A DNA stretch of 63,916 nucleotides from an uncultured Eubacteriales bacterium (GCA_949841245.1 CATKYT010000004.1:1-63916); one strand, 5' to 3'; positions 297 through 48,903 are shown, counted from the first letter of the stretch. Program-made: numbers and translations. The notes: generated by a model not told the origin, from the letters alone.

Positions 297-3200
297 ATGA
301 GAACAGTGATGGCAATTTTTAACAAAAAACCAGACAATCAAAATGACATTTTAGGAGAATCTTACACCCTTGAAGACAAAACTAAACCAGTTTTTCCTTG
401 CCTTGAAATTCAAGAGTTTGAAAAGTTTTCTTCTTATGGTTATAATCTCACTTATTCCACAATCAATGATAACGATTCACAACTTTTTGTTCAAAAAAGA
501 ATTTACAAAAATGGACAAACATTTCTTGACATTGGTTTGCTTAATGATGAAACCAAAGAGTTTAAATATGTAACCGTTAAAAACATCAATGCAATAAAAG
601 ATGATGACGGAACTAATTTGATGGAAATTGAATATTACATCGATTCCTCCAAAGATCTTAAACAAACTGCCAAATGTTTTTTGCCATATAAATTTTCTCC
701 AACAGCAGAAGACCCTGTTGACCATTTAAGTGTGGAACTTAACAAATTACAAAGAAATTTTGAAATTGAACCTTCAAATGTCTATAAAAACAAATTGGAA
801 TTTGGCAGATTAAAGCCAACTGTTTTTCAAACTGTTGAACAGGCAAAAAGTTTCATGACTTTTCAACCTAAAAATTATTGGACCAAAGGTTATACACCTG
901 AATCAAAGATGGTTTATGTTCCTTATAAAAACAACAGCAATGAAACTAATTTTATGAGATTTGAATTAAACAATTCTGGAAAAGTTGACTTACTTTTAAA
1001 TGTCAATGAAAATGTCATTATCAATGTTTCTCCAACAGAATTTGTTGTTGATGCAAAAACTGGCAAGATTGCCATGAAAACCAACTTATCACATGACAAT
1101 AAATTTGACATCCTTCCAATTGACGCCAAAAACAACCCAGAACTCGTTGGCACACTTCAAAGCATTGCAAATGGAAAAGTCACCACTGCAAACTTAGATG
1201 GGTTTGAGTTGCTTCCTTCAAGATTTGTGCAAAATGTGGCAAACCATGCTGTATTTAAAAGAGAAAAAATCACCGAAAACCAACTTATTGTAAAAGAAGT
1301 TGACAGAAATGGTTTTGTTGCTGAAAATGGTGGCAATCCAATGCAACCAACTAATCAAACTGCTGGAAACGCAAACCCTGCTTCTCAGCAGACCGCTCCA
1401 CAGCCACAAACCACACCTGTTGCACCTGCAAATCCACAACCAACTACTGAAAATGAATCAACTCAGCCAGAAAAACCAAAAGGAACGGTAATCGGAGAAC
1501 AATCAAAAGTTTCTTATAATGGCAATTCAGGAATAAATGCACCAAAAATTAACGAATTGGACAATTCAATTTCCATGGATATTTCCATCAGTGGTGGACA
1601 TTTCCAAAATGGTGCAACTCAAAAAATCAAACTTACTGATGAAAAAATTTCATCTGACTATATTGGAAGAACTTTACTTTCAATTTATAAACAAGACAGC
1701 AACAATTCATCCAAAAACATCACATTTGCTTCTGTCACCAAAAATGGAACAAATTATCAACTTCATATTGATAAAGAATCTTTGCAAGCATGTTTAAATA
1801 ATTACGAAATAAGAACAGGAAAGAAATTTCCATTAACAGGAAACATTTTCAACCCACAAACAATCAAAATGTCAGACAGCAACGAACTTCAAGGCGCTGA
1901 AATCAACATTGGAGATGGCAAAACTGTTTCTATATCTTTTGACGCCGCTGGAATGAAAATTGTCAGCACAGAAAAATTGTTTAATGAAGATGGTTCGCCA
2001 AAACTTGATGAAAAAGGAAAACAACAAACACATGATGAAATCGCCTTTTTAAGTTCTGGATCAAGACCACTTGACTTTTCGGTTAACCCACAATTCTTGC
2101 ACGAAGCAGCAACTGTTAATCCAGTTGTTGACAACGAAGGAAATTTAATTGACCCACCACTTCCAAGTGTGAAAATGGAAGGGCATATTGCTGAAAACCT
2201 TATGGTTATGTCAATTTTGCAAGAAAGACAAAAATCTGAAAAGGCAGATGAAAACAAAAAAAGTGCCATTATAACCAGAACATTTGGTGACAACAATGAA
2301 ATTCAAATAAATTCTGTTCCTGTCTATGAAGAAGGTTTGGCTGAACCATATTATTTTAATATCATTCGTGAAAAAAATAAATCTCCACGAATTTTCCTTG
2401 ATATGCGTGCACCAAAACAAGGACAAAAACAAGGTGCCGAACTTGCACCTAAATTCTATGAAATCAAAGAAATTGGCATTGAAGCAAAAAGTGTTGAAGG
2501 TGCAAAAAATGCCAGTGAAAAAGGAAAAGCCGAAGGCTTTGGTCTTTATTTGGGCATTAAATCTGACAACAATAAAGTTCGCTTAAACCTTCCAAACCTT
2601 GCCTATGAAAGTTTTGCAAAAAATGGCATTATCGACTTTCTTGACAACATTCATGAAGGTAATGATGGTTATGTTGGATTTCCTTTCAATGAGTTAAAAT
2701 CAAACATAATCGGTTACAGACAAAAAGGCACTGGAACATATTTTTCAACTTTGCCAAAACCCCTTCCTGCTGGAACAACCGTAAAAGATTTCATGGAAAT
2801 TCATTCCCGCAGTAAAACCAACACAAACACAATTAAAGGCACAAACACAATTGCCAACTTACGCAACAACATAAGTGACATTGTGGAAGAAGAAATTGAA
2901 GAAGTTAAAGATTTCCTTTATCAACCAAAAATTTCTTACGACACCCGCAAAGGACAAAGACTTGAATTTGACAAAAACGGAACGACATCCATTGCCCTTC
3001 CTATGGACAAAAAATTTAATTTTGAAGAAAATACCGCTCAAACAATCACTTTAATCAATGATAAAGAAATCAATGCTGGAATAAACGACACTTACCCTGC
3101 AAATCCAAGTGAAGAAAAAATCATTTCAGTCGCCGACCCTAAAATTGGTGGAGAAACAATCAGTTTCACAAGAACAGTCAATAATGGCGAAACTTCTTTC

Positions 3201-5255
3201 TCTATGAATTTTGATGCAAAATTGTTGCAACAAATGGTTCAAGACTATAAAACCTTAAACAATCAAGATTTTGATTTAGATTTAAGCAAACTTACAGCCG
3301 AAGAAGGAAAAGTAAAATTTGATGTAGATAAAATTCTCATTTCAGATGATTTAAAAATTCAAGGTGTTGAAATCAAGGCCGCAGGGAAAACACTTGCAAT
3401 CGACATTACTGCTGCTGGCTATATGATAAGCAATGGAAAACAAGTTGCCCGCCACAGAATGGAAAAACAACCACTTGATTTCACTTTTAATTCTTCCATT
3501 TTAAATGATGCCGAAACAAACACAAACTTTGAATTAAAAGACGGCAAAATCAAAGATGAGCTTCAAGTTATGGCCATTCAACAAGCTCGCTTTAAGGCAA
3601 GTCAAATGGCAACAAATGAACCTGTAATTCTCAACTATGGAGAAAACTTGACATTATATTCCCTTCCAGTAAAAGTTGGAGATTCCATTCAAAACTTCGT
3701 TTTCAGACAAGAAAAAGGAAAAACACCAGAACTTTATGCAGACTTGGAATCACCAAAAGGTGCTGCAAAACTTGCCCCTAAATTCTCTAAAATAACCCAT
3801 TTGAATATGGAAGCAATGTTTGATGAAGCAGGAAATGTCATTTCATCTGGTTTATATTTGGGAGAAAGAAAAAATCAAAACAACAGTGAAAGCATAAGAA
3901 TTGAAGTTGGAAATGTTGACTTAACTGATAAAACAAGCCAGAATTTACTTACTGTTTTAGAGCAAATTCAAGACAATTCAAAAGGAAATTTCCACTTAAA
4001 CGAATTTATTTCTTCAAATGACAAACAACAAGTTGCTATTCAAGGTTATCGTCAAATTGACACCAACCCTGAAACAGGCGAAAAAACCATTAATATTGTT
4101 AAAAACATTCAAGAAGAAGATGGAGATCCTGAAAAACCAAAAACAGCAGGCAGAGAATATCAACCAGTGTATTCAATCGGTGGAGAAAAATCTTATCATA
4201 TAAATTGGGATAATGTGGCTAAACTTCAAAATAATGCACAAAAAGAAATTGTTGAAAAAGAAAAGCCAGTTGAAAAGAAAGAGCCCGTTTATGATATGCC
4301 AAAAGTTCCTAAAAGAAGAAAGAAAAAAGTCAACGAATACATTTCTACACTCGGGCTTATCGGACTTGGAGTGTTGGCAGCAATTCTTGGAATTATCAAT
4401 CCATTCTTCCTTATTGTTTCAAGTGCTTTATTTGCAACAGTAGTTCTAAAAGATACAGGATTACTTAGTGCCATAGTTGAAGCGTTTGGACCAAGAGATG
4501 AAGATGCATTGGACATTCACAACAATATTGTAAAAACTCGTTCTAAAATTGTGGAAACAGACAAAAGTATCTCTGATGTTCAAGCAAAAATAGATGAAAT
4601 CTTACAGCGTGCTGGAAAAGTTGATGCCAAATCAGGCAAAATCAATTGCAACAAACTTTTGGGCATAAATGGCAATTCTGTAAACATTATGGATGCCAAC
4701 GGAACCCCTGTTGACTTGAAAGACATTAACTTTGATGCAAGTGGCAATCCAATAGACAAAAATGGCAACCCATTGCAAATTAAAGATAAATGCGGATTTA
4801 CTTCAAAGCAAATTCAAGATATTGTTAAAATTCAACAAGATTTAATTGCAAAGCAAGAAGAAATCAAACTTCAAAAAGATGCAAAAAAACAGGCTAAACT
4901 TAAAGAAGATGCCCAATTGCTTGAAGAAGAACAAAGAAAAATCTTTGACCAAAATTTCAACGACATTCAAGAACTTGAAAAAAGAAAAAAACAACTTGAA
5001 AATAAAATTAAAAAACAAAGAAATAAAGCAAGTTCCTTGATTGAAACAGGAGAAGTTTTGTATAACAACGGAACGCCATATGACTTAGATTTAAGAAACG
5101 AATACACAGATGAACAAGGAAATCAGCATACAGGCACAGAAGCATACTATAATCAAAACAACAAGGAAAAATATGATGCCGCTGTTCTTGCAAACAAAAA
5201 TTACAAGGGTAACGCTTCAAATGTTACAGTAAAAAGTGAAGGACCTTCAAAATAA
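297..5255 (+). CDS. Giant hypothetical protein (1652 aa) with an internal duplication, a C-proximal hydrophobic hairpin and a coiled-coil tail
   Basis: Single uninterrupted ORF. No N-terminal signal peptide. P/Q/T-rich linker at aa ~347-395. Two homologous modules at aa ~425-812 and ~943-1253. Hydrophobic stretch at aa ~1348-1384. K/E/Q-rich C-terminus. No family recognised. Confidence 0.85.
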   Translation: MRTVMAIFNKKPDNQNDILGESYTLEDKTKPVFPCLEIQEFEKFSSYGYNLTYSTINDNDSQLFVQKRIYKNGQTFLDIGLLNDETKEFKYVTVKNINAIKDDDGTNLMEIEYYIDSSKDLKQTAKCFLPYKFSPTAEDPVDHLSVELNKLQRNFEIEPSNVYKNKLEFGRLKPTVFQTVEQAKSFMTFQPKNYWTKGYTPESKMVYVPYKNNSNETNFMRFELNNSGKVDLLLNVNENVIINVSPTEFVVDAKTGKIAMKTNLSHDNKFDILPIDAKNNPELVGTLQSIANGKVTTANLDGFELLPSRFVQNVANHAVFKREKITENQLIVKEVDRNGFVAENGGNPMQPTNQTAGNANPASQQTAPQPQTTPVAPANPQPTTENESTQPEKPKGTVIGEQSKVSYNGNSGINAPKINELDNSISMDISISGGHFQNGATQKIKLTDEKISSDYIGRTLLSIYKQDSNNSSKNITFASVTKNGTNYQLHIDKESLQACLNNYEIRTGKKFPLTGNIFNPQTIKMSDSNELQGAEINIGDGKTVSISFDAAGMKIVSTEKLFNEDGSPKLDEKGKQQTHDEIAFLSSGSRPLDFSVNPQFLHEAATVNPVVDNEGNLIDPPLPSVKMEGHIAENLMVMSILQERQKSEKADENKKSAIITRTFGDNNEIQINSVPVYEEGLAEPYYFNIIREKNKSPRIFLDMRAPKQGQKQGAELAPKFYEIKEIGIEAKSVEGAKNASEKGKAEGFGLYLGIKSDNNKVRLNLPNLAYESFAKNGIIDFLDNIHEGNDGYVGFPFNELKSNIIGYRQKGTGTYFSTLPKPLPAGTTVKDFMEIHSRSKTNTNTIKGTNTIANLRNNISDIVEEEIEEVKDFLYQPKISYDTRKGQRLEFDKNGTTSIALPMDKKFNFEENTAQTITLINDKEINAGINDTYPANPSEEKIISVADPKIGGETISFTRTVNNGETSFSMNFDAKLLQQMVQDYKTLNNQDFDLDLSKLTAEEGKVKFDVDKILISDDLKIQGVEIKAAGKTLAIDITAAGYMISNGKQVARHRMEKQPLDFTFNSSILNDAETNTNFELKDGKIKDELQVMAIQQARFKASQMATNEPVILNYGENLTLYSLPVKVGDSIQNFVFRQEKGKTPELYADLESPKGAAKLAPKFSKITHLNMEAMFDEAGNVISSGLYLGERKNQNNSESIRIEVGNVDLTDKTSQNLLTVLEQIQDNSKGNFHLNEFISSNDKQQVAIQGYRQIDTNPETGEKTINIVKNIQEEDGDPEKPKTAGREYQPVYSIGGEKSYHINWDNVAKLQNNAQKEIVEKEKPVEKKEPVYDMPKVPKRRKKKVNEYISTLGLIGLGVLAAILGIINPFFLIVSSALFATVVLKDTGLLSAIVEAFGPRDEDALDIHNNIVKTRSKIVETDKSISDVQAKIDEILQRAGKVDAKSGKINCNKLLGINGNSVNIMDANGTPVDLKDINFDASGNPIDKNGNPLQIKDKCGFTSKQIQDIVKIQQDLIAKQEEIKLQKDAKKQAKLKEDAQLLEEEQRKIFDQNFNDIQELEKRKKQLENKIKKQRNKASSLIETGEVLYNNGTPYDLDLRNEYTDEQGNQHTGTEAYYNQNNKEKYDAAVLANKNYKGNASNVTVKSEGPSK

Positions 5256-23598: not shown

Positions 23599-26500
23599 TT
23601 AAACAATTTTGTTTAAATATTGTTTTCTGTAATAATCATTGGAATAGATTGTTTTTCCACCTGTCGTAACATAACTTTCACCAGTTACAGAATTTAATTT
23701 TAAAGGTATGGAAACTGTGTCATTCTTGATTCCAATCTTTGTTGAAACAGTCTCAATAAATCTGTATTCTTTGCCATTTACAACATAGGCATCACTTAAA
23801 TCAATTTGAACATTCATATTATCAAAGTTTGCATCACCAGTAAGTGATTTACCTTCTAAGCCCATGCTGAAGCCTGTAAATACTTCTTTCTGGTTTACAG
23901 TTGTAAATATTGGAGCATAACTCATGATTGTTTGTTCCAAACTTGGATTTGGATTCATGCTTGCAATAAGGTCACCAATTTTGTTGTAAACAGTGTCAGT
24001 TAATCCCAACATATAAGCAAAGATTTCCATGATATGACTTCCGATTTCGTCTGCTCTCCAAGATTTAGTAATTTTTTCATCACGCTTCTTCCAAGCAGCC
24101 CAACCTGTATACTTGTTTCCATAAGTGTTTTGAACAAGATTTAAAACGCCATCTTTATATTCCAAAGTGGAAACACGCTTATCAAAACCATATGCAGAAT
24201 AAACTGTATAGGTATTTCCAAATCCGCCAGCATTGTAAGTAACATCAACAAAACTTGGAACAACCATTTCAAGATAAAGTCCAACATCTCCGCTGTCACT
24301 TAATTCAACCAACAAGTCATAGTAAACAGTAATTGCGTCTATGCCAATAATACCAATGCTTGTGCTGCCATTGAAAGCAATGTTCTGTGTGTTAAGTGTG
24401 CTTACAGCAACATCCATAAACTCAGTTATTGAACTTAAATCTATGTGTGCTTTTGTTGTGTCATAGTCAAATTTTTCATCTGTAAATTGGTCAAACTTAA
24501 TTTCAAGATTGATTTTGTTGTCACCAACACAAACACCTGAAATTGCCAGTTTGTTAAGTTTTGAAGTTGTGGTGTCTGCAATTTTATTGTTGGAAATAAC
24601 CAAACTAATTGAAGCATTTTCCCCAAAAGTTTCTTTCAAGTTGATTTTAAGGGTGGTTGTAAAGTTACCAAAAACATCTTCTTCACTTGTTTCCAATTCA
24701 ACTGCACTTAAAACATTTGTAATGTTTGTAATTGATTGCAACATGTCATCAATGTTTGAATTATCATTGTTTTGATTTACATCAATATTCAAAAGTTTTT
24801 GCAAATAAGTGAAATCTGTTTTGCAAGGTTCAAGTCCCCAAGAAATCATTGTTTGTTCGTCCAATTCCATGCCCATAAGCGAAAGAATCATAGAAACCAA
24901 TGTGCTTAAATTAGAATTTTTAACTTTGCCATTAAATTCTTTATTTCCAACCAAATCTCCGTGAGAATAAGAGAGATAAAGTTCACCTGAATCGTTACTT
25001 TCATAGAAAACAGACATTTTATGTTGAACATCAGTGTCATCAATTAAAGACTGAATGTTGATGTCAACATCACCTAAAACTTTGATATAATTATTGTCAA
25101 ACCAAGACAAAACTTGTTCACCCAATTCTTCATCTTTATCAAAGACAGGAACATCTGTAAGTTGATTTATTTTTAAAGTTAAATCTGAACCTTCATTAAT
25201 TTTAATAATTTGACTTTCACTTGCCACACTGCCAGAAAGACCCAATTGATAGTTGAAACTTGTAAGATAGTCATAAGCAGAAAGAAGTGGCAATAATTCA
25301 CTGTAATGATGGAAATCTGAAATATTCAATACAACATCATTTGCTACAAAGCCTGTAAGTTCACCATTTTCAATGACAAAATTGTCAGAAATTTGAGATG
25401 CATTTCCAGCAGTCAAGTTGTAAATGTAAACCGCAAAATTTTTGTTTCCAGTAAGGTCATAATCTTCAATTAATTCTCCATTTACTGTAAGCAAATAATC
25501 TTTATAACCATTTTCATTAAGTGTTGTGTTTTTATCGTCAATGTTCGCACCAAGAGTTATTGCACTTGGAAGCAATTTGCTTCCATCTTTTTGAACAATC
25601 ACTTTTGCAACAATGTCATAGAAACTTGCTTGACTTGCGTAATAGAAATTATCTTTAATGTTTATTTGAACACCAAAATTTGTTTCATTTTCTTCTGTAA
25701 GTTCAAAAATCCATTGTCCATAAATTTCTGTCAGACTTGGCAAAACCATTTTAAAGGTTTCAGCAGTTTCAACAAATGAAATCGCATCCGAAGAAGTAAA
25801 TTGGTTGAAAATTTCCATTATTTCAGAAATAGTTTGTTCATTTAAGTCAGCATAAACTTGAAGACCAGTGATGCTGATGTAAACTGTGTTGTCAACCAAG
25901 AAGATGTAACTGTCAAGTCCCAAAGAACTTGTATAGAAAGCAACAGCAGGAACATAACCATCAATCAAACCTTTGTGGTCATCATCTTTAATAAGAATTC
26001 CAACCAAACTTCCAAAGAATTGGTTTGTGCTGTAACGAACAGCAAGGTCTGTGTTGAAAGAGTAAATTCCATCAGTTATTTTGAAACTGTCTAAAATTCC
26101 TTCAACAATGTCAGTTGTGTAAGTTTCATAATCACCAGAATTTATGACATCAATTGTGGATTTTTCAACATAATTAACCACAACTTTTCCGCTTAAAACA
26201 GAACAATCAATTTGTGCTTCTGTCAACTTATTTTCTTCATTGCTGAATGTCAATTTTGCCACAACTTTGTTGTTGTAATAGAGTTCCAACGCAACACAAG
26301 TGCTGTTTGCAGACAATTTTAAATTCTTGAAAAAGTCTTGAACAGTGTAGTTTTGAAGCACATCAATCACCGGTTGCAAATCTCCAAAGTCAATGTCAAC
26401 ACCAAGTTTGTCTGATGTCAATGAGTTTAAAATTTCAATCAAATCAAAATTTGAATTTCCCTGATTTTGTGGAACAGCAACTTTAAATTTCATGTTGGCA

Positions 26501-28110
26501 TAATTTACAAAAATGTAACTATCTTGAATATTAATTTTCAAATTTTCGCCAAATAAATTTAAAACTGAAATTTCCATTTTTCCATTGAAATATTTAAATG
26601 TTCCGTTTAAATCCAAGCCATTAAAATTCACAACAAAGTCAAACTCATAAATTCCATTTTCAATATACATCAAGAAATTTAATACAGGAAGCAAGTTTAC
26701 AGCATCACAATATCCAGTATCATCAAACACAATTACTTTGCCGTCATAAATGTTTGCACTTAAATTTACATTTTCAGAGTTTACTGAAACTCCATTAAGC
26801 ACACCTGCATCTTGAGTTAAAACAATTTCAAGTCCAGCATTCCAAAGTATGCTATATTCGTTTTCAGTCATGACTGCTTGGTCTGGAAGATAAGAAAGAA
26901 TTTTATTTAAATCCAATTTTTCAGAAACATCAGAAATAATGTCATTAAAGTCAAATTCACCATTATCTGAACCATTGTTTTTCAAAAGTTTTTCAATAAT
27001 GCTTACAATAAATTCTTTTGTTGTCAATGATGTTGCATTTTGAATTGTTTTATCCAACGCGTCTTTAAACTTGTTATAATCTTCAACATTAAACTTAACT
27101 TTAATATTTTCAAGTTGAACATAAACAGTTTCATCAGCATAAACAACGCAAGCATTTACCCCTTGGTTGAAATCAAACTTAACTTTAAGTCCATCAGTTC
27201 TGTCAACTGTAAGCAAACCACCGTAACTTTCACCATTAATTTCAAAATCTAAATCAGCAGAAACAATTTCTTTATTGTTCAATTCTTTTGCATAAGAGAT
27301 ATAATCCATAATGCCGTCAAGTTCAATTTCATTTTCAGGTTTTTCATATTGAACTTCGAAATCTTCACTGTTCATAGCATTTACATTTGCAATTAAACTG
27401 ATTCCGCCAAGTGTGCTGTGATGCGCTTTTGCAGATGTTATGTTAAAGTTTTCATCACAATAAACAAGTGCTTCAAGTTTTCCAAATTTAATATTAAATT
27501 TATATGTTCCATCATCCAAAATTTCTTCCTTTGTTTCTAAACTTGAAAGAATAGTTGTGGAATCAATCTTTGACAAATCAACACCAATTATGGCTGACAC
27601 TTTGGATAAAATGGCATCAGTATTGATGTTGACATTGTTAAACACAAAATCTAAAACTGCTGACATGTCCATGTCAGTTGCTTTTGATATGTCAAATTTA
27701 TAGTTTTTTCCATTCAAAGAAAGGTGCAAACACGAATTCACATAACCAGCAGACACAGCAAAACTTTGACCATTATAAGCCAAAAGCGTTTCAAAGGCAA
27801 ATTCTTGTTTTTCCATGTCAAAAGCAACCTTGCTGTTTTTGGCAGAGAAATCAATGTTTCCATTTTTCACATTAAGATCAAAATTCACATCAATGTTTTT
27901 AAATTTGGAAAAACTTTGCACAAATTCTGCAAAATAATTTTCTTCTTCGGCGCTTGCTCCCAAAACTGGCAAAGTGATTGGTCCTGACTCAATCTTACCA
28001 AAAATTTGAATATAGCCAAAGAAAACAAGCAAAGTCATTATAATATAAAGGGAAAATGCTTTAAACATTTTTGGAACAAGGTTTCCAACTTTTTTAATTG
28101 GTCTTTCCAT
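23599..28110 (-). CDS. Giant N-terminally anchored hypothetical protein (1503 aa)
   Basis: Start set at the ATG at 28110-28108 behind GGAGGTGA (MERPIKK...); the ORF track starts 7 codons earlier. One N-terminal TM (FSLYIIMTLLVFFGYIQIF), then about 1450 aa rich in N/D/S/V/I and predicted beta-rich. No family recognised. Confidence 0.85.
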   Translation of the reverse strand: MERPIKKVGNLVPKMFKAFSLYIIMTLLVFFGYIQIFGKIESGPITLPVLGASAEEENYFAEFVQSFSKFKNIDVNFDLNVKNGNIDFSAKNSKVAFDMEKQEFAFETLLAYNGQSFAVSAGYVNSCLHLSLNGKNYKFDISKATDMDMSAVLDFVFNNVNINTDAILSKVSAIIGVDLSKIDSTTILSSLETKEEILDDGTYKFNIKFGKLEALVYCDENFNITSAKAHHSTLGGISLIANVNAMNSEDFEVQYEKPENEIELDGIMDYISYAKELNNKEIVSADLDFEINGESYGGLLTVDRTDGLKVKFDFNQGVNACVVYADETVYVQLENIKVKFNVEDYNKFKDALDKTIQNATSLTTKEFIVSIIEKLLKNNGSDNGEFDFNDIISDVSEKLDLNKILSYLPDQAVMTENEYSILWNAGLEIVLTQDAGVLNGVSVNSENVNLSANIYDGKVIVFDDTGYCDAVNLLPVLNFLMYIENGIYEFDFVVNFNGLDLNGTFKYFNGKMEISVLNLFGENLKINIQDSYIFVNYANMKFKVAVPQNQGNSNFDLIEILNSLTSDKLGVDIDFGDLQPVIDVLQNYTVQDFFKNLKLSANSTCVALELYYNNKVVAKLTFSNEENKLTEAQIDCSVLSGKVVVNYVEKSTIDVINSGDYETYTTDIVEGILDSFKITDGIYSFNTDLAVRYSTNQFFGSLVGILIKDDDHKGLIDGYVPAVAFYTSSLGLDSYIFLVDNTVYISITGLQVYADLNEQTISEIMEIFNQFTSSDAISFVETAETFKMVLPSLTEIYGQWIFELTEENETNFGVQINIKDNFYYASQASFYDIVAKVIVQKDGSKLLPSAITLGANIDDKNTTLNENGYKDYLLTVNGELIEDYDLTGNKNFAVYIYNLTAGNASQISDNFVIENGELTGFVANDVVLNISDFHHYSELLPLLSAYDYLTSFNYQLGLSGSVASESQIIKINEGSDLTLKINQLTDVPVFDKDEELGEQVLSWFDNNYIKVLGDVDINIQSLIDDTDVQHKMSVFYESNDSGELYLSYSHGDLVGNKEFNGKVKNSNLSTLVSMILSLMGMELDEQTMISWGLEPCKTDFTYLQKLLNIDVNQNNDNSNIDDMLQSITNITNVLSAVELETSEEDVFGNFTTTLKINLKETFGENASISLVISNNKIADTTTSKLNKLAISGVCVGDNKINLEIKFDQFTDEKFDYDTTKAHIDLSSITEFMDVAVSTLNTQNIAFNGSTSIGIIGIDAITVYYDLLVELSDSGDVGLYLEMVVPSFVDVTYNAGGFGNTYTVYSAYGFDKRVSTLEYKDGVLNLVQNTYGNKYTGWAAWKKRDEKITKSWRADEIGSHIMEIFAYMLGLTDTVYNKIGDLIASMNPNPSLEQTIMSYAPIFTTVNQKEVFTGFSMGLEGKSLTGDANFDNMNVQIDLSDAYVVNGKEYRFIETVSTKIGIKNDTVSIPLKLNSVTGESYVTTGGKTIYSNDYYRKQYLNKIV

Positions 28111-29054
28111 TAAATCACCTCCCCATTGCAAACTGCATCATAAGAAGGCAAATTGTCATATTGGAAAGTTTCAACAAAATCATCAGTAACACCCATGTAA
28201 CCAAGCCCAGAAACATACATCTTATATTTTTCTGTGTATTTAATGGAAACAAAACGGAAATCACTTCCAACTGTGACAGTCATCTTTAAACTGTCCCACT
28301 TAGGCAATTTTTCAAAACCACTGGAAAATCTGATTTCATAAGAATAATACAAAGCGGAAAAAGCCAAATAATCTCCGCTTAAATTGATGTCAAAAGAATA
28401 TGTGTCATCACTGTTTTTGACAACTTTTGAAACAGCAGATGCCGGACACACTTTGGATGAAATAATGTAAGGCAGATAAGATGTAGGTTGAGTGTTAAAC
28501 GCTTCTACATATTGTTTATTGTTGAAAGTTTGAAAATCTGCTTCATTAAAAGTAAATCTGTAACCATTTTTAGGGTCATCATATGGATTGGTAATGTTTA
28601 AGTTTGAATTCAACTTGACTTCATCTAAATTGTCAAGATTAAATCTTACTTGTGAATGAATTGGTGGAGACATAGAATTTGTAGAAGGGCTTAATTTGTT
28701 GTAAACAAACTTGCCTTCTGTTTTCAATTTTTCGCCTCTCATATTTTGCTTAATGCCCATAGGAGCATTAACAAGCCCAACCATAACTTTAAAGAAATCA
28801 TTTTCAGCAAGATAATGTTCGGCAATTTGAAAAAGTTGAACACCCGAAAAAAGTGAAACATCTTTTCCGCCAAGCGCTTCATTAATCAGTTTTTCAATGT
28901 CTTCTGGCTTATCTCTTAAATCGCTTTCATTTGCAGAGATGTTTGGATTGGCTTCAAGAGTTCCGACATAGATTTGTCCCACAGAAACACCTGTCACCAA
29001 GGCAATGGCGAAAATGACAATAAAACTCATTATTTTCCTATAATTAAGTGCCAT
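28110..29054 (-). CDS. N-terminally anchored hypothetical protein (314 aa), translationally coupled to the 1503-aa gene
   Basis: TM segment IMSFIVIFAIALVTGVSVG. Its TAA stop overlaps the downstream ATG (TAATG) at 28110. GGAGA RBS. Confidence 0.85.
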   Translation of the reverse strand: MALNYRKIMSFIVIFAIALVTGVSVGQIYVGTLEANPNISANESDLRDKPEDIEKLINEALGGKDVSLFSGVQLFQIAEHYLAENDFFKVMVGLVNAPMGIKQNMRGEKLKTEGKFVYNKLSPSTNSMSPPIHSQVRFNLDNLDEVKLNSNLNITNPYDDPKNGYRFTFNEADFQTFNNKQYVEAFNTQPTSYLPYIISSKVCPASAVSKVVKNSDDTYSFDINLSGDYLAFSALYYSYEIRFSSGFEKLPKWDSLKMTVTVGSDFRFVSIKYTEKYKMYVSGLGYMGVTDDFVETFQYDNLPSYDAVCNGEVI

Positions 29055-30587: not shown

Positions 30588-33209
30588 TTAAAGTTCACGT
30601 TCGCCACCTGGAACAAATAAATACTTATCACCATTTTCAGCAACTGCAGCTGTTGTAGTATTTTCATTTTCGTCTTCAACTGGTTTAACAGTGCCGTTAT
30701 TGTCTGTTGTCATATTTTTTTCGGATTCACCTTGTCTGTAACCATTATAGTCAGATTTACCAAGAGCAACTAATACTGCTTTTTGTTCATAGTCAGCATC
30801 GTTATTGAACTTTGTTGCAGAAATTTTGCAACTTCCTTGTGTTGTAATAACACCATTTACAGTGTATTCATAAGTGCAAACATTTACATTATATTCAGCA
30901 TCTGGCTTGCTTACAAAAACATAAACTTCGTTAGCATTTTCCATTTCGCCTTCATGAGCACCTGTAAAGAATTTTGTTCCCAAACATGCTTCAGTTGCAT
31001 TTTCTGTCAAAAGCAAATCATTTACATCGTCCAATGTAACCTTTCCATCGTTTCCTTTGTCAGCTCCAACAACTTTATAAAGTTTTTGACCATCTTCTGA
31101 CTTAACAATTACTGTAACTTTTCCGTCTTTAACTTCTGTTACAACGCTTTGTAAGTCTAACTTTTCACCAAACTTATCTTCAAGTTTTTCAGCAATAGTA
31201 GCATTATTGATGCTTACATCACCGTTTGTGTTTACGTTAGTATCACTATTTGTATTACCATCGCCTTTGTTGTTGCCTTCACTATTATTTGTAATATGAA
31301 TACCAAGAGCTACTGCACCTGTAATCAAACCAAAAGCAACAATTGGTGCAAATATTGCTGCCATAATTTTTAATGTTTTTTTAGTAGCAGGAGAAAGTGG
31401 TTTTTTAGTTCTTTTCTTAACCCCACCTTGTTGTGGAACAACTAGTGCGTTTTCTTTTTCTTCCTGAGCATGCAAATCTCTAAGGTGTTTATTTACAATG
31501 TCAACAACTTGATTTTTAACAGGTGGCATTTCGCCGTCATATTTTACTTCAAAATTTTTGTTTTCTTTGTAAGCATTTTCAATTTCAACTCGCCATTCTT
31601 CAACATCTTTCCCACCAAATACATGTTTCATTTCAAGAGCAAGAGTTCTTACAATTACATCATGTTTTTCTTTGTTTGAAGCATATCTCAAAGCATCTTG
31701 AATTGTCCATGAAATCAACTTTTTATTGAGATCCAAAACATAATTTTGAGTTCCTTCTTCCGTAGCTTCATATCTTTTTCCACTATCTATTGCTTTGCGA
31801 ATTTCTGCTTCCCAGTCTGCCTTTTTGAAGTCTAAATTCCATTTTCCAGTTAATGTTTCAGCAAGAGCAGAGATTTCATAATCTCTGTTTTCTTCATAAT
31901 GAATATCAGAAATAAATCTATTCAAATCGTTGACAAGGACTTTTTGTTCTTCACTTATATTTTCAGTAGAAACGGCAGTTTCTTTTCCAGTTTTTCCATA
32001 AACTCTTGTAATTTCAGCCAACCAAGTTTTTACAGTTTTTTTGCCACCCAACTTAGCCAAATTTTCAGCATATACTTCAAAAACAGTCTTCAAATTATCT
32101 TGTGCTTCAACTCCACGAACAGCATTTTTAATTTGCAAATCAATTAAATCTCTGTTTGCATTTAAAAAGGCTTGTTTTTGTGTAGCACTGTAAGGAACTT
32201 GTGAATCAATTACGAATAATTGACCATTTTCTACAAGATTAAGAATTTCTTCTTCCCAACCTTTTTGGTCACGACCAGTATCCAATTTTAAATTAACAAA
32301 TCTTCCTGCAAGTTTAGAAACCAAGTCTTCCACTTCTTCTTCATAATGGAAGTTTTCAAAATGACTGTTAACCAAATCAACAACATTTTGTTGTTCTTCA
32401 GTCAATTCAACTGGTTGTTTGTTTTCATCTATAAAATTGTATTGCAAACCATTATTATAATTTTTTCTAACATTTTCAACAGTTAACAAATTTTCAACTT
32501 CAGGAAAAACTCTTTGCAATTCATATGAAAACAATTTAAACGCAGCGTTGCGTCTTTCATCAAGTGGAATTTTTCTGAAATCATCTGAATATTCTGCTTC
32601 ATCTAAAAGGTACTTAAGATAATTTCCATATTTTAAAGTAAAATCAACATCATTTGATGAATTTACAGGTTTTGGTTCTGTTTTAACTTCTGGTTGTGCA
32701 GGTTGTTGTTCAACAACTGGTGCTTCTGCTGGTTCATTTACCACAGCAGGTTCTGTTTCAACCACTTGTTCTTCAACGACTGGTTGTGTTGGTTGTTCAA
32801 CTGGTTGACCTTCTTGTGCAACAACACCTTGTTTGATTTCATTTTCGTTCATTTTTTCATCCCCCTTTTTGTTTGCCGCTTGATTTATTTTTCTCTTAGT
32901 TTTAAATTCTTTAATTTTTGCTATAATCTGATCGTTATATACATGATCTTCACGGTCTAATGAATCTTTATCTCCTATTTCAACTTGACTTAAACTTGGA
33001 TTATCCAATTTAAATTTGCTGAACTTAACAGCATTTACTTCTCCCGTAGCTGAATTATCACTGAAAGTTCTATAATAAACATTAAGAGTTGATTCGTCAA
33101 TTAAGAAAATGTATTCTGTTCCACCACTTGAACGACCAATAAAAGTTTTATCTTTATTTTCTTCAAGTTGACATAACTCATTAAATCTCTTTTTACTTGG
33201 TTTTGCCAT
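30588..33209 (-). CDS. Single-pass membrane protein (873 aa) with a repeated cytoplasmic module; unknown function
   Basis: GGGAGGTG RBS. E/P/Q/V-rich linker (aa ~128-182). Three copies of a motif ending in ...HYEEE / ...HYEEN / ...HAQEE. TM at aa ~613-638 (31296-31373). About 235-aa C-terminal ectodomain. Confidence 0.85.
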   Translation of the reverse strand: MAKPSKKRFNELCQLEENKDKTFIGRSSGGTEYIFLIDESTLNVYYRTFSDNSATGEVNAVKFSKFKLDNPSLSQVEIGDKDSLDREDHVYNDQIIAKIKEFKTKRKINQAANKKGDEKMNENEIKQGVVAQEGQPVEQPTQPVVEEQVVETEPAVVNEPAEAPVVEQQPAQPEVKTEPKPVNSSNDVDFTLKYGNYLKYLLDEAEYSDDFRKIPLDERRNAAFKLFSYELQRVFPEVENLLTVENVRKNYNNGLQYNFIDENKQPVELTEEQQNVVDLVNSHFENFHYEEEVEDLVSKLAGRFVNLKLDTGRDQKGWEEEILNLVENGQLFVIDSQVPYSATQKQAFLNANRDLIDLQIKNAVRGVEAQDNLKTVFEVYAENLAKLGGKKTVKTWLAEITRVYGKTGKETAVSTENISEEQKVLVNDLNRFISDIHYEENRDYEISALAETLTGKWNLDFKKADWEAEIRKAIDSGKRYEATEEGTQNYVLDLNKKLISWTIQDALRYASNKEKHDVIVRTLALEMKHVFGGKDVEEWRVEIENAYKENKNFEVKYDGEMPPVKNQVVDIVNKHLRDLHAQEEKENALVVPQQGGVKKRTKKPLSPATKKTLKIMAAIFAPIVAFGLITGAVALGIHITNNSEGNNKGDGNTNSDTNVNTNGDVSINNATIAEKLEDKFGEKLDLQSVVTEVKDGKVTVIVKSEDGQKLYKVVGADKGNDGKVTLDDVNDLLLTENATEACLGTKFFTGAHEGEMENANEVYVFVSKPDAEYNVNVCTYEYTVNGVITTQGSCKISATKFNNDADYEQKAVLVALGKSDYNGYRQGESEKNMTTDNNGTVKPVEDENENTTTAAVAENGDKYLFVPGGEREL

Positions 33210-44077: not shown

Positions 44078-44133
44078 CAATCTTTCCTTTTTATTATTTT
44101 ACACCAATTTAACCTGAAAAGCAATTAATTAAA

Positions 44134-44160
44134 ACAAAAAAACGACTGCATTAGTCGTTT
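44134..44160 (-). terminator. Rho-independent terminator (copy A of a duplicated terminator)
   Basis: Minus-sense ACGACT-AATGC-AGTCGT followed by T7. Near-identical to 44336-44363. Confidence 0.8.
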
Positions 44161-44176
44161 AAGTTTTTTTGTTAAA

Positions 44177-44318
44177 TGGCAGGGGTGGCAGGGTTTGTCA
44201 CAGGTTGTCGCACAACCGCCGACCCATTGTCACTTACCCGCCCTTGGGTCGAGCCTACGCATAAGTAGGTTCAGCAAAACACAGTTTTGCAAAAAGTCTT
44301 TGACTTTTTAATCCTGCC
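44177..44318 (-). ncRNA. Structured element derived from the tRNA-Gln(UUG) T-arm (unclassified). It has an inverted T-arm, a direct T-arm and the acceptor 3' strand with CCA; both T-loops are split by hairpin inserts
   Basis: Minus sense: GGCAGG-ATT-[AAAAAGTC-AAA-GACTTTTT]-[GCAAAAC-TGT-GTTTTGC]-TGAACCTAC-TTATGC-GTAGG-CT-[CGACCCA-18nt-TGGGTCG]-GC-[GGTTG-TGCGA-CAACC]-TGTGA-CAAACCCTGCCACCCCTGCCA. Homologous in architecture to 46709-46839. Whether it acts as RNA is not known. Confidence 0.55.
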
Positions 44319-44335
44319 GTTATAACTTTTTGTAA

Positions 44336-44363
44336 ACAAAAAAAACGACTGCATTAGTCGTTT
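44336..44363 (-). terminator. Rho-independent terminator after tRNA-Gln(UUG) (copy B)
   Basis: Same hairpin as copy A, followed by a T-run. Confidence 0.8.
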
Positions 44364-44379
44364 AGGTTTTTTTGTTAAA

Positions 44380-44454
44380 TGGCAGGGGTGGCAGGATTTG
44401 AACCTACGCATGCAAGAATCAAAATCTTGTGCCTTACCGCTTGGCGACACCCCT
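44380..44454 (-). tRNA. tRNA-Gln (UUG)
   Basis: AGGGGTG/CACCCCT acceptor stem, CAAGA-TTTTGAT-TCTTG anticodon arm, GTAGG-TTCAAAT-CCTGC T-arm, encoded CCA. Confidence 0.92.
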
Positions 44455-44537: not shown

Positions 44538-44688
44538 GTGTCACAAACATCACTCTTGCTCACTTTCATTTAAAATGAAAATTCTGCTTTTAATGTTTAC
44601 ATCTTATTAAAAAATGTAAACCATGTCCATCTTCGCAAGACCAACAACCATATTCCCCGCATAAGCCAAAATAATCGTAAATTATATT

Positions 44689-44796: not shown

Positions 44797-44873
44797 TGGG
44801 GTGGTCTAAGAGAATCGAACTCTTGACCTCCAGAGCCACAATCTGGCGTTCTACCAACTGAACTAAGACCACC
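44797..44873 (-). tRNA. tRNA-His (GUG)
   Basis: Extra G-1 opposite C73, CCAGA-TTGTGGC-TCTGG anticodon arm, AAGAG-TTCGATT-CTCTT T-arm, encoded CCA. Confidence 0.92.
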
Positions 44874-44933
44874 ACATGTCATGACCTAAATTATTCTTGG
44901 TCATTCCTTTTTCCCAAAAATGTTACACATTAT

Positions 44934-45013
44934 TGGGAGCCCTGTCTTTTCGCACCAGCAATCTTCCAGGAGTAATTGCAAATGCGTAAAATCGCAGATT
45001 GCTGGTGCTCCCA
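44934..45013 (-). other. Long hairpin pairing the 3' end of tRNA-Arg with a downstream inverted copy
   Basis: Minus-sense GCACCAGCAATCT (45008-44996) pairs perfectly with AGATTGCTGGTGC (44964-44952) across a 31-nt loop. After a 10-nt bulge, GCTCCCA (44940-44934) complements the acceptor strand TGGGAGC. Confidence 0.6.
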
Positions 45014-46590: not shown

Positions 46591-46683
46591 GGAAACGTAT
46601 CGAAGTGGTCGCACCGAGCCGCACTCGAAATGCGGTTGTCAGGGAAACTTGGCACGTGGGTTCGAATCCCACCGTTTCCGCCA
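46591..46683 (+). tRNA. tRNA-Ser (CGA)
   Basis: Class II tRNA, GGAAACG/CGTTTCC acceptor stem, CCGCA-CTCGAAA-TGCGG anticodon arm, long variable arm, GTGGG-TTCGAAT-CCCAC T-arm, encoded CCA. Confidence 0.9.
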
Positions 46684-46708
46684 TTTCAAAAATTTTAAGT
46701 TAATAAAA

Positions 46709-46839
46709 GGTGGGATTAAATGCAAAGCATTCCACAAACTTTGTTTGTGCGAACCCACGCTCCATGGGCTCAACCCTTGGTCGAAGAAGAAACTATGGGT
46801 TGTCGGCTCCGCCTGAAACGAATTCCACCGTTTCCGCCA
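46709..46839 (+). ncRNA. Structured element derived from the tRNA-Ser(CGA) T-arm (unclassified); same architecture as 44177-44318
   Basis: GGTGGG-ATT-[AATGC-AAA-GCATT]-C-[CACAAAC-TTT-GTTTGTG]-CGAACCCAC-GCTCCAT-GGG-CT-[CAACCC-20nt-GGGTTG]-TCGGCTCCGCCTGAAA-CGAATTCCACCGTTTCCGCCA. Lies 25 nt after the tRNA with no terminator in between. Confidence 0.55.
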
Positions 46840-46968
46840 TTTTAAAAATTTTGTTCTTTTGCTTAATAAAAAGCAACTCTTAAATTTAAAGAAGTTTAAA
46901 CAAAAAAGGCCTGTTGAATTAACAGTTTTTTATTATATCAAGTCAATCTTATCACATACCTAAATTTC

Positions 46969-47872: not shown

Positions 47873-48835
<963 letters not shown>

Positions 48836-48903
48836 TGAAACCTCCAAGAGAGCATTTTGCTCCCAATAACATTTTATGATAAAAATGAAATTCGGTTAAA
48901 AAG

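Follow-up and report, generated by a model that had tools for sequence, protein, structure and literature searches.

tRNA genes are classic landing sites of mobile DNA, and the tRNA-targeting elements that we know of are kilobase-sized and carry their own integrase. In the attP(+) site of CTX phage, used by XerCD, and in the attC sites of integrons, used by IntI, one strand of an imperfect palindrome folds up as a duplex mimic of the double-stranded partner site, with an unpaired or bulged centre. Here, we analyzed a 63,916-nt stretch of DNA from an uncultured Eubacteriales bacterium (GCA_949841245.1 CATKYT010000004.1:1-63916; 64 kb of its genome, referred to as the window herein), in which an intact tRNA-Ser(CGA) gene is followed by a module of ∼130 bases that looks like an undescribed small mobile element targeting the tRNA T-loop. 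The window is ordinary chromosome in content, with genes for gyrase, tRNA synthetases, DnaG, sigma-70, and GroEL. A first-pass annotation of the sequence had proposed that the module repeats an element located behind tRNA-Gln(UUG) in the same window. Our tools found this second copy again, and the proposal is strengthened by three extra full copies, two behind tRNA-Gln(UUG) and one behind tRNA-Gln(CUG), which come from two genomes of related uncultured Clostridia/"Eubacteriales".

The resulting set comprises five distinct full copies from three species at three target tRNAs: Ser(CGA), Gln(UUG), and Gln(CUG). Besides the window, we refer to loci L008 and L024 of a sister species (a GTDB metagenome-assembled genome, 'uncultured Eubacteriales bacterium'), L026/L027 of a third organism, and L007, a strain of the same species as the window. 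tRNA genes were called with ARAGORN and Rfam, direct repeats with a repeat finder, and protein domains with Pfam and NCBIfam. The five copies are best explained as one small family of insertion modules that are non-coding and highly structured, have cores of ∼110 to 120 nt, and lie at tRNA genes of a narrow clade of uncultured Clostridia. This family is real and statistically supported; it is apparently undescribed, our literature search having found no description of such an element, and we count it among the site-specific tRNA-targeting insertion elements.

Fold and match to the target tRNA

The relationship between the two cores of the window does not depend on the tRNA sequence that they both border. 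With the duplicated tRNA block removed, nhmmer matched the Ser and Gln cores at E = 3.5e-5 to 7.8e-5 (271 kb). Their local alignment score was 32, compared with 15.3 ± 2.4 for 1000 dinucleotide shuffles (z = 7.0), and no shuffle equalled it, so the possibility that the alignment is no better than shuffled controls, which the first-pass annotation had named as its own refutation, did not materialize. Over columns that are not tRNA-derived, the Ser copy is ∼60% identical to every Gln copy. Taken separately, the hairpin-only pieces of the two cores show no significant primary-sequence similarity (z = 1.0 and 1.9); their homology therefore rests on structure and on the three further copies.

We drew the structure by hand on a MAFFT alignment of the five copies. 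Its helices are a'/a, which closes the structure, and b'/b; a 2-bp link joins b'(56-57) to a, and there are four hairpins, 1, 2, A, and B. In this structure 96.1% of cells are paired, and 13 of 44 pairs are double-changed as compared with 5.2 ± 1.6 in shuffles, none of which reached 13 (0/500). When the structure was slid by 1 to 3 columns as a control, pairing fell to 29 to 49% and only 0 to 1 double-changed pairs were left. RNAalifold, run unguided, predicted the same helices. Three pairs of hairpin 2 differ between the Ser and Gln copies and all three are compensated, three pairs change in hairpin B, and pair 71-101 of hairpin A is AU in two copies, GC in two, and A.C in one. Both the full compensation in hairpins 1 and 2 and the G:C to A:T switch in hairpin A had been noted at first pass in the window, and both hold in the wider set. 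Loops of exactly 3 nt close hairpins 1, 2, and B in all copies (15/15) with free choice of sequence; in hairpin 1 of the two L024 copies, for instance, the loops AAA and TTT reflect a flip of the whole hairpin. The apical loop of hairpin A is C-G-closed, purine-rich, and conserved. The loop positions that the Ser and Gln copies had been said to share there are only partly conserved across the wider family. As judged from these aligned copies, the compensatory changes show that the structure of the element is under selection.

The fold is built from the target. Every copy has four segments that match the T-arm of the adjoining tRNA, two antisense (a' and b') and two sense (b and a). Stacked in our model, b'/b, the 2-bp link, and a'/a form an 18-bp duplex copy of tRNA positions 49-66 from one strand. 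The antisense ('bottom') strand carries the bulge of hairpins 1 and 2, at 57|58, and the sense ('top') strand that of hairpins A and B, at 55|56; the two points are 2 nt apart. Because T-stems are self-complementary, a cruciform-like alternative (a'/b' and b/a) could also form. The antisense T-arm of tRNA-Ser is split into two exact reverse complements (Table 1), as the annotation had read it, and the spaced pattern GGTGGGATT-N25-45-CGAACCCAC occurs once in the window and in none of 100 shuffles. That the T-stem-derived segments switch together with the local tRNA, first seen in the two window copies, holds for the five-copy set. The b' base opposite position 57 tracks the tRNA, being C with G57 and T with A57 (pair 48-126: UA in three copies, CG in two); in the Gln(CUG) copy of L024 the first b' base is now C, matching G57. 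All five copies also carry the reported T54-to-C replacement (GG-CT-C). Two details of the earlier layout were amended. The order of ATT and hairpin 1 stands, with one extra A between them, and the sense T-stem piece TGGG is correct for the window but reads GTGGG in strain L007, where a single-nucleotide polymorphism (SNP; 46764 A>G) restores the fifth b'/b pair.

The junction is equally uniform. CCTGNRA directly precedes C56 in 5/5 copies, and the direct repeat begins at C56 in 5/5. A second tRNA copy that starts exactly at C56 amounts to an insertion between T55 and C56 by which the 3' end is replaced, the new end being either brought along or created. At tRNA-Ser, the duplication noted at first pass with 2 mismatches in 34 was recovered by the repeat finder as 32/34 identical positions (94%) starting at C56 of the T-loop; weaker similarity to the right copy runs on beyond the left repeat to ∼46708 (TTAATAAAAG). 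The flank of the right repeat continues into sequence resembling the tRNA-Ser flank of the sister species, which by-eye comparison we read as orthologous. Repeat lengths vary, being 34 nt (Ser), 68 nt with 94% identity (window Gln(UUG)), 22 nt (L024 Gln(CUG)), and 26 nt (L026 Gln(UUG)), and the repeat of the L024 Gln(UUG) copy has decayed. Decay has reached the right tRNA copy of L024 and L021 (CCTGAC, ACTCC, ACA for CCA) but not the core hairpins, which are intact. At the L024 Gln(CUG) copy, both repeats are of the Gln(CUG) type, yet a' looks inherited from a Gln(UUG) element. The sequence after this repeat is, by eye, the module directly behind the same tRNA in L010, which implies that the right copy is the resident one. 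In our reading, what moves is the core, possibly together with a short spacer; the repeat is made from or homogenized with local sequence, and the partial tRNA copy is a by-product rather than a conserved part.

No terminator-like site lies in the 25-nt spacer between tRNA-Ser and the core, in agreement with the annotation, whereas a terminator hairpin intervenes between tRNA-Gln and its element in the window. Co-transcription of the Ser element with tRNA-Ser would be consistent with this arrangement.

Table 1. Parts of the family copies, with positions in the window, match to the target tRNA, and covariance-model scores
Copy	Feature	Position	Strand	Basis or remark
Ser(CGA), window	tRNA-Ser(CGA), intact, T-arm GTGGG-TTCGAAT-CCCAC	46591..46683	+	ARAGORN; Rfam tRNA 54.1 bits
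Ser(CGA), window	left direct repeat, C56 through CCA + 13 nt flank	46663..46696	+	repeat finder
Ser(CGA), window	structured core, 110 nt	46709..46818	+	116.3 bits, covariance model
Ser(CGA), window	a' = GGTGGGATT	46709..46717	+	exact reverse complement of tRNA-Ser positions 58-66
Ser(CGA), window	hairpin 1, AATGC-AAA-GCATT, 5 bp	46719..46731	+	equivalent hairpin in 5/5 copies
Ser(CGA), window	hairpin 2, CACAAAC-TTT-GTTTGTG, 7 bp	46733..46749	+	3 pairs double-changed vs Gln copies
Ser(CGA), window	b' = CGAACCCAC	46750..46758	+	exact reverse complement of tRNA-Ser positions 49-57
Ser(CGA), window	6-nt loop GCTCCA, b = TGGG (sense T-stem 5' strand), CT replacing T54 T55	46759..46770	+	
Ser(CGA), window	hairpin A, CAACCC - 20-nt purine-rich loop - GGGTTG, 6 bp	46771..46802	+	
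Ser(CGA), window	hairpin B (GGC-TCC-GCC, 3 bp) + junction TGAAA directly before C56	46805..46818	+	
Ser(CGA), window	right direct repeat: partial tRNA, C56 to CCA (one C>T) + flank	46819..46852	+	repeat finder
Gln(UUG), window	tRNA-Gln(UUG), host of second window copy	44380..44454	-	ARAGORN
Gln(UUG), window	core	44198..44318	-	148.7 bits, covariance model
Gln(UUG), window	a'	44318-44310	-	
Gln(UUG), window	hairpin 1	44309-44291	-	
Gln(UUG), window	hairpin 2	44290-44274	-	
Gln(UUG), window	b'	44273-44265	-	
Gln(UUG), window	b	44258-44254	-	
Gln(UUG), window	hairpin A	44251-44220	-	
Gln(UUG), window	hairpin B	44217-44203	-	
Gln(UUG), window	junction	44202-44198	-	
Gln(UUG), window	right direct repeat, C56 to CCA + flank + terminator hairpin	44130..44197	-	partner 44333-44400
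Gln(UUG), 3/3 copies	a' GGCAGGATT; b' TGAACCTAC			both exact
Gln(CUG), L024	a' GGCAGGATT; b' CGATCCTAC			one mismatch each; a' is the Gln(UUG) form
L024, both copies	core			160.2 and 152.7 bits, covariance model
Gln(UUG), L026	core			131.0 bits, covariance model

Occurrence in related genomes

A covariance model was built from the five full copies and the window was scanned with filters off, a search that the annotation had suggested. Both window copies and the L024 and L026 copies were recovered (Table 1), and no further member rose above noise in the window or was found in 181 kb of related loci. Every copy follows an intact tRNA at a distance of 25 to 61 nt and shares its orientation, and the insert measures 156 to 203 nt. 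Within the species of the window, the Ser copy is present in contigs from 7/7 other samples, with 0 to 2 SNPs each.

The sister species keeps the same tRNA-Ser and gene order as the window, with a neighboring protein 59% identical, and lacks the element at tRNA-Ser (L008 and L024). Its locus L024 has one copy behind tRNA-Gln(CUG) and one behind tRNA-Gln(UUG), while tRNA-Gln(CUG) of the window is element-free. The comparison of tRNA 3' flanks in relatives that had been proposed at first pass thus shows absence at one tRNA and presence at another. The third organism, L026/L027, has a single copy behind tRNA-Gln(UUG), and L021 preserves the right end of a further, partial Gln(UUG) copy beside a CYTH gene. 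From this difference in occupancy between the sister species, we conclude that individual tRNAs have acquired or lost copies. Within L024, the two copies agree at 82/96 positions (85%), as compared with 72/96 (75%) for the positional orthologues at tRNA-Gln(UUG) of L024 and the window, which suggests copying within a genome.

Pattern scans extended the family little. Strict hairpin-A patterns had no match in GTDB genomes, JGI metagenomes, or IMG/VR, although these were over-strict, as the sister species also fails them. Relaxed patterns returned one true GTDB locus (L024) and one true metagenome species (L026/L027), and nothing in viral contigs; matches at L022, L023, and L025 lack hairpins and tRNA context and are due to chance. 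Searches by synteny gave little as well. Most homologues of the CYTH neighbor are not beside tRNAs, and the downstream 267-aa gene led only to a truncated contig.

Other insertions occupy the same kind of position. A second conserved module of ∼130 nt, here called type X, starts 1 to 5 nt after the tRNA CCA in L008 (9664..9541, minus strand), L010 (1507-1623), and L024 (721..591, minus strand), is present by eye in L026 just after the mini-element, and is absent from the window. It begins with GCAAAAAATCTGCAC, contains GATTTTTTGC, and ends in CACCGCCAAACGAAAA-hairpin-TTTTGCGGTG. Type X stands behind different tRNAs in different species and belongs to no Rfam family, with a weak Thr_leader match at E = 0.03. 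In more distant relatives, mini-insertions of ∼110 to 150 nt follow tRNA-Gln(CUG) and tRNA-Leu(cag) (L014 1175-1436; L016 4431-4677, minus strand; also L018 and L019). The L014/L016-type insertions have repeats of 36 and 23 nt from C56 and an antisense T-arm piece that pairs with the right repeat; their inner sequence is unlike the family. At the same tRNA-Ser(CGA), two strains or sister lineages carry wholly different 3' DNA (L024 2888-5308 vs L008 9667..9284), consisting of open reading frames (ORFs) without a Pfam match in L024 and of the type X module in L008; the tRNA-Ser 3' flank is a variable hotspot. Several metagenome contigs (L005, L008, L011, L015, and L021) end in or beside mini-elements or tRNA genes, and the repeats may break assemblies.

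Within the window, the tRNA operon has spacers of 130 nt between Arg and His (44873-45002) and 151 nt between Gln(CUG) and Lys (44538-44688). The Arg-His spacer of L010 is only 4 nt long, and a promoter-like block (..AAAATGCTTGCCATTTTT..) is common to the window spacers and relatives. At 48257-48769, a dense repeat with a period of 9 nt falls in the minus-strand ORF 47873-48847, which is collagen-like (Gly-X-Y), has a BclA C-terminal domain, and varies in length by strain from 288 to 324 aa. For three very large ORFs (297-5255, 23599-28131, and 30588-33209; 1652, 1510, and 873 aa), neither Pfam nor NCBIfam gave a match. In one strain of a distant relative (L017 1-5500), a prophage-like block with two large serine recombinases lies where other strains have the tRNA cluster side.

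Weighing mobility against other readings

We tentatively interpret the module as a non-autonomous, site-specific mini-element of tRNA T-loops that is moved in trans, an interpretation that we consider quite possible. The folded single strand, either DNA or an RNA copy, would serve as substrate for a recombinase or another enzyme, encoded elsewhere, that pairs it with the T-arm of the tRNA gene. The enzyme would exchange strands at T55|C56 in the manner of folded single-stranded DNA (ssDNA) sites such as CTX-phage attP(+) and integron attC; by analogy with attP(+)/XerCD and attC/IntI, one strand exchange would then be followed by replication. The target-matching segments would tie each copy to its tRNA. 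Alternatively, the variable repeat could arise from staggered nicks, one fixed at T55|C56 and the other 22 to 68 nt downstream, followed by fill-in. A circular form, if any, would carry the junction ..CCTGAAA joined to CGAATCCCACC..spacer..GGTGGGATT. Movement of this kind is supported by the repeat start at C56, the differing occupancy, the compensated stems, and the target-matched segments described above, as well as by the other mini-insertions in related genomes, which also begin their repeat at C56 and have an antisense T-arm piece. The lack of a conserved ORF, and of any integrase, transposase, or reverse transcriptase in the window, speaks for non-autonomy.

Several observations weigh against mobility. 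No enzyme was identified within the 64-kb window: Pfam and NCBIfam revealed no integrase, transposase, or reverse transcriptase there, and no integrase domain occurs among window ORFs of at least 150 aa. Copies are few: the window has two, and the covariance model detected no weaker ones there. At tRNA-Gln(UUG), the copy occupies one and the same locus, beside the CYTH gene, in at least two species (the window and the L024/L021 lineage), and the third species (L026) also has a Gln(UUG) copy, in a rearranged operon. Such preservation of the stems, at ∼75% identity, speaks more for a role in the host than for a dormant parasite. The repeats are of local type at Gln(CUG) and include the locus's own terminator at Gln(UUG) of the window, which is more like a target duplication of 22 to 68 nt than a carried 3' end, and such a variable repeat from local sequence fits the strand-exchange scheme less well. 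In linear double-stranded DNA (dsDNA), the right junction has no T-stem-like arm by the crossover, the arm being adjacent only upon folding. In addition, the firm stems contain 1 G.U and 3 A.C on the sense strand, too few to tell which strand folds or whether it is RNA or DNA, and a' and b' of the L024 Gln(CUG) copy have one mismatch each, so matching is not strict.

Some of these points suit a functional non-coding RNA from the tRNA transcript, trailer-derived or operon-embedded, whose anti-T-arm segments would act on tRNA or pre-tRNA in processing, folding control, or titration; alternatively, its own duplex would be a processing site. The duplicated tRNA 3' end would supply a tRNA-like end. 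The element always has the orientation of its tRNA, two copies are embedded in tRNA operons with Gln on one side and Lys on the other, and nothing resembling a terminator separates the element from tRNA-Ser. The Gln(UUG) locus has been conserved long-term with compensatory changes, hairpin A keeps its apical loop, and the extra pairs of RNAalifold add conserved sense-strand G.U (69-103 in 4/5 copies). However, terminator-like hairpins stand between tRNA and element at the Gln(UUG) copies of both the window and L024, and a promoter-like site is absent in or just before the element. The decay of the tRNA-like 3' copy in L024 and L021, where core hairpins persist, indicates that the tRNA-like end is not what is conserved. 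Triloops in all short hairpins are unusual for RNA, no Rfam family matches, and both the repeat start at C56 and the occupancy differences in the sister species are left unexplained. On balance, we regard a functional RNA as somewhat unlikely. A guide module for a nucleic-acid-guided recombinase, following the logic of IS110/IS1111 bridge/seek RNAs, would have its transcript read both T-arm strands via a'/b' and b/a while an enzyme in trans inserts at dinucleotide 56-57. Guide-like segments do flank hairpins, span both strands of the 18-bp target, and change with it. Exactly 2 nt separate the two interruptions, which is the core dinucleotide size of IS110 and serine-type enzymes, although the offset shows 5'-overhang geometry. 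In the bridge-RNA loop, one sense and one antisense guide are paired within a closed internal loop; here antisense pairs go with antisense and sense with sense, without closing stems. An IS110 duplication is 2 nt long, as opposed to 22 to 68 nt, and no DEDD/IS110 gene was found in the window. Although ssr9 of ISPpu9 is a precedent, as a small RNA-gene module that rides on an IS110 transposase without encoding it (PMC12288879), we judge this mechanism quite unlikely.

Inert scars were considered as well, that is, attL/attR remnants left by near-total deletion of a prophage or integrative and conjugative element whose tyrosine integrase was T-loop-specific, akin to a leftover cis-mobilizable element (CIME). 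Integration into tRNA genes has been described in general terms (PMC9897764). The flank of tRNA-Ser is indeed a variable hotspot in the clade, and a direct repeat that extends from the T-loop to the 3' end of the tRNA classically marks T-loop-class integration, as Williams reportedly set out in 2002. Independent deletions would nevertheless not yield five copies at three tRNAs with the same 110- to 120-nt architecture and end points, stems upheld by compensatory change, and internal T-arm segments that follow the local tRNA, even the unrelated tRNA-Ser. There is also no similarity to phage or plasmid records or viral contigs: BLAST returned nothing, whether the two cores were compared with phage records or the Ser core with plasmid records. 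Scars are thus very unlikely. No annotated MITE (miniature inverted-repeat transposable element), att family, or Rfam family accounts for the element, an outcome that the first-pass annotation had left open. Run at both the gathering and a permissive threshold on the window, L024, and L010, Rfam gave true tRNAs and chance-level matches only. On the cores, the only match up to E = 10 was a ciliate telomerase RNA over part of the Gln copy, which is chance (E = 4, 20.7 bits vs a gathering score of 52). A coding reading was rejected since the 57-aa ORF 46710-46883 is not preserved and copies differ by non-multiples of three. We likewise rejected a ribozyme (no Rfam ribozyme family, no hammerhead core by eye), a second tRNA or tRNA-like gene (ARAGORN calls only the true tRNAs on both strands), and a permuted or split tRNA or T-loop intron (by eye, no acceptor 5' strand); a group I intron is in our judgement a poor fit at ∼156 nt with the upstream tRNA intact.

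Among all copies, the conserved property is a fold that rebuilds the target T-arm, with internal segments that follow whichever tRNA adjoins. If mobile, the mini-element would be a minimal substrate for T-loop-specific recombination and a route for nucleic-acid-encoded target choice. An extension of this idea, which we think unlikely, is that the module is a protein-free programmable targeting device in which a', b', and b choose the tRNA gene by pairing with both T-arm strands and a handful of substitutions suffices for a new target, as from Gln(UUG) to Gln(CUG) and on to Ser. Such a device would be a new kind of nucleic-acid-guided site-specific insertion system with a geometry unlike that of IS110 bridge RNAs, and it may act as folded ssDNA. 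If instead a functional RNA, it would represent a new class of tRNA-linked RNA that has anti-T-arm guides. In both cases, the family explains the partial copies of tRNAs in these genomes, may account for the breaks of assemblies at their tRNA loci, and offers a concrete structure open to oligonucleotide tests.

Comparison with known systems

The mini-element shares with MITEs and with the palindrome-associated transposable elements (PATEs) derived from IS200-IS605 a small, non-coding, hairpin-rich, and non-autonomous character, and its 9-bp a'/a can be read as terminal inverted repeats. Unlike in MITEs, the duplication is 22 to 68 nt and variable, not short and fixed, only two copies occur in the 64 kb where MITEs would be numerous, and there are internal target-matching segments. 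PATEs have subterminal hairpins, insert 3' of a fixed tetra- or pentanucleotide without duplicating the target, and go with TnpA in the genome; the mini-element shows hairpins and a fixed insertion point after ..GGTT, but also a long repeat.

T-loop elements of tyrosine integrases and CIMEs resemble the family in their insertion at the T-loop, the intact tRNA, the repeat from the T-loop to the tRNA end and beyond, and variable occupancy; CIMEs, in addition, have att-like repeats without recombination genes. A CIME derives from, and is mobilized by, a related full-length element that uses the same att sites; here, pattern scans and BLAST found no full-length relative. The known integrative elements are kilobases long, whereas the mini-element is gene-free at ∼130 nt and has no integrase gene inside. 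It also differs in its inverted and direct half copies of the T-arm, which follow the target, and in a repeat that is seemingly local sequence of variable length. Its right junction is CCTGNRA|C56, with the b arm 50 to 60 nt off and no core-type arm in linear dsDNA.

The attP(+) and attC sites resemble the mini-element in working principle only. The strand of the mini-element would likewise fold into a duplex mimic, here of the T-arm, whose structure is conserved over sequence as seen from covariation, and an inverted site copy stays beside one junction after integration. It differs in that the target is the tRNA T-arm rather than dif or attI, the bulges are whole hairpin pairs, and both the enzyme and the ssDNA state are putative; by eye, the element contains no dif-like site, RYYYAAC/GTTRRRY motifs, or R''/R' boxes. 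Lastly, IS110/IS1111 bridge/seek RNAs and ssr9 of ISPpu9 (PMC12288879) are also non-coding modules of ∼150 nt in which target-complementary segments flank hairpins. The mini-element departs from the IS110 bridge RNA in its guide arrangement, its long flanking duplication, and its tRNA site with a copy of the target 3' end, and no IS110 enzyme is present in the window. Solo RNA modules of the ssr9 type can, similarly to the copies described here, stand without an adjacent transposase gene and are a precedent for gene-less hitch-hikers (PMC12288879).

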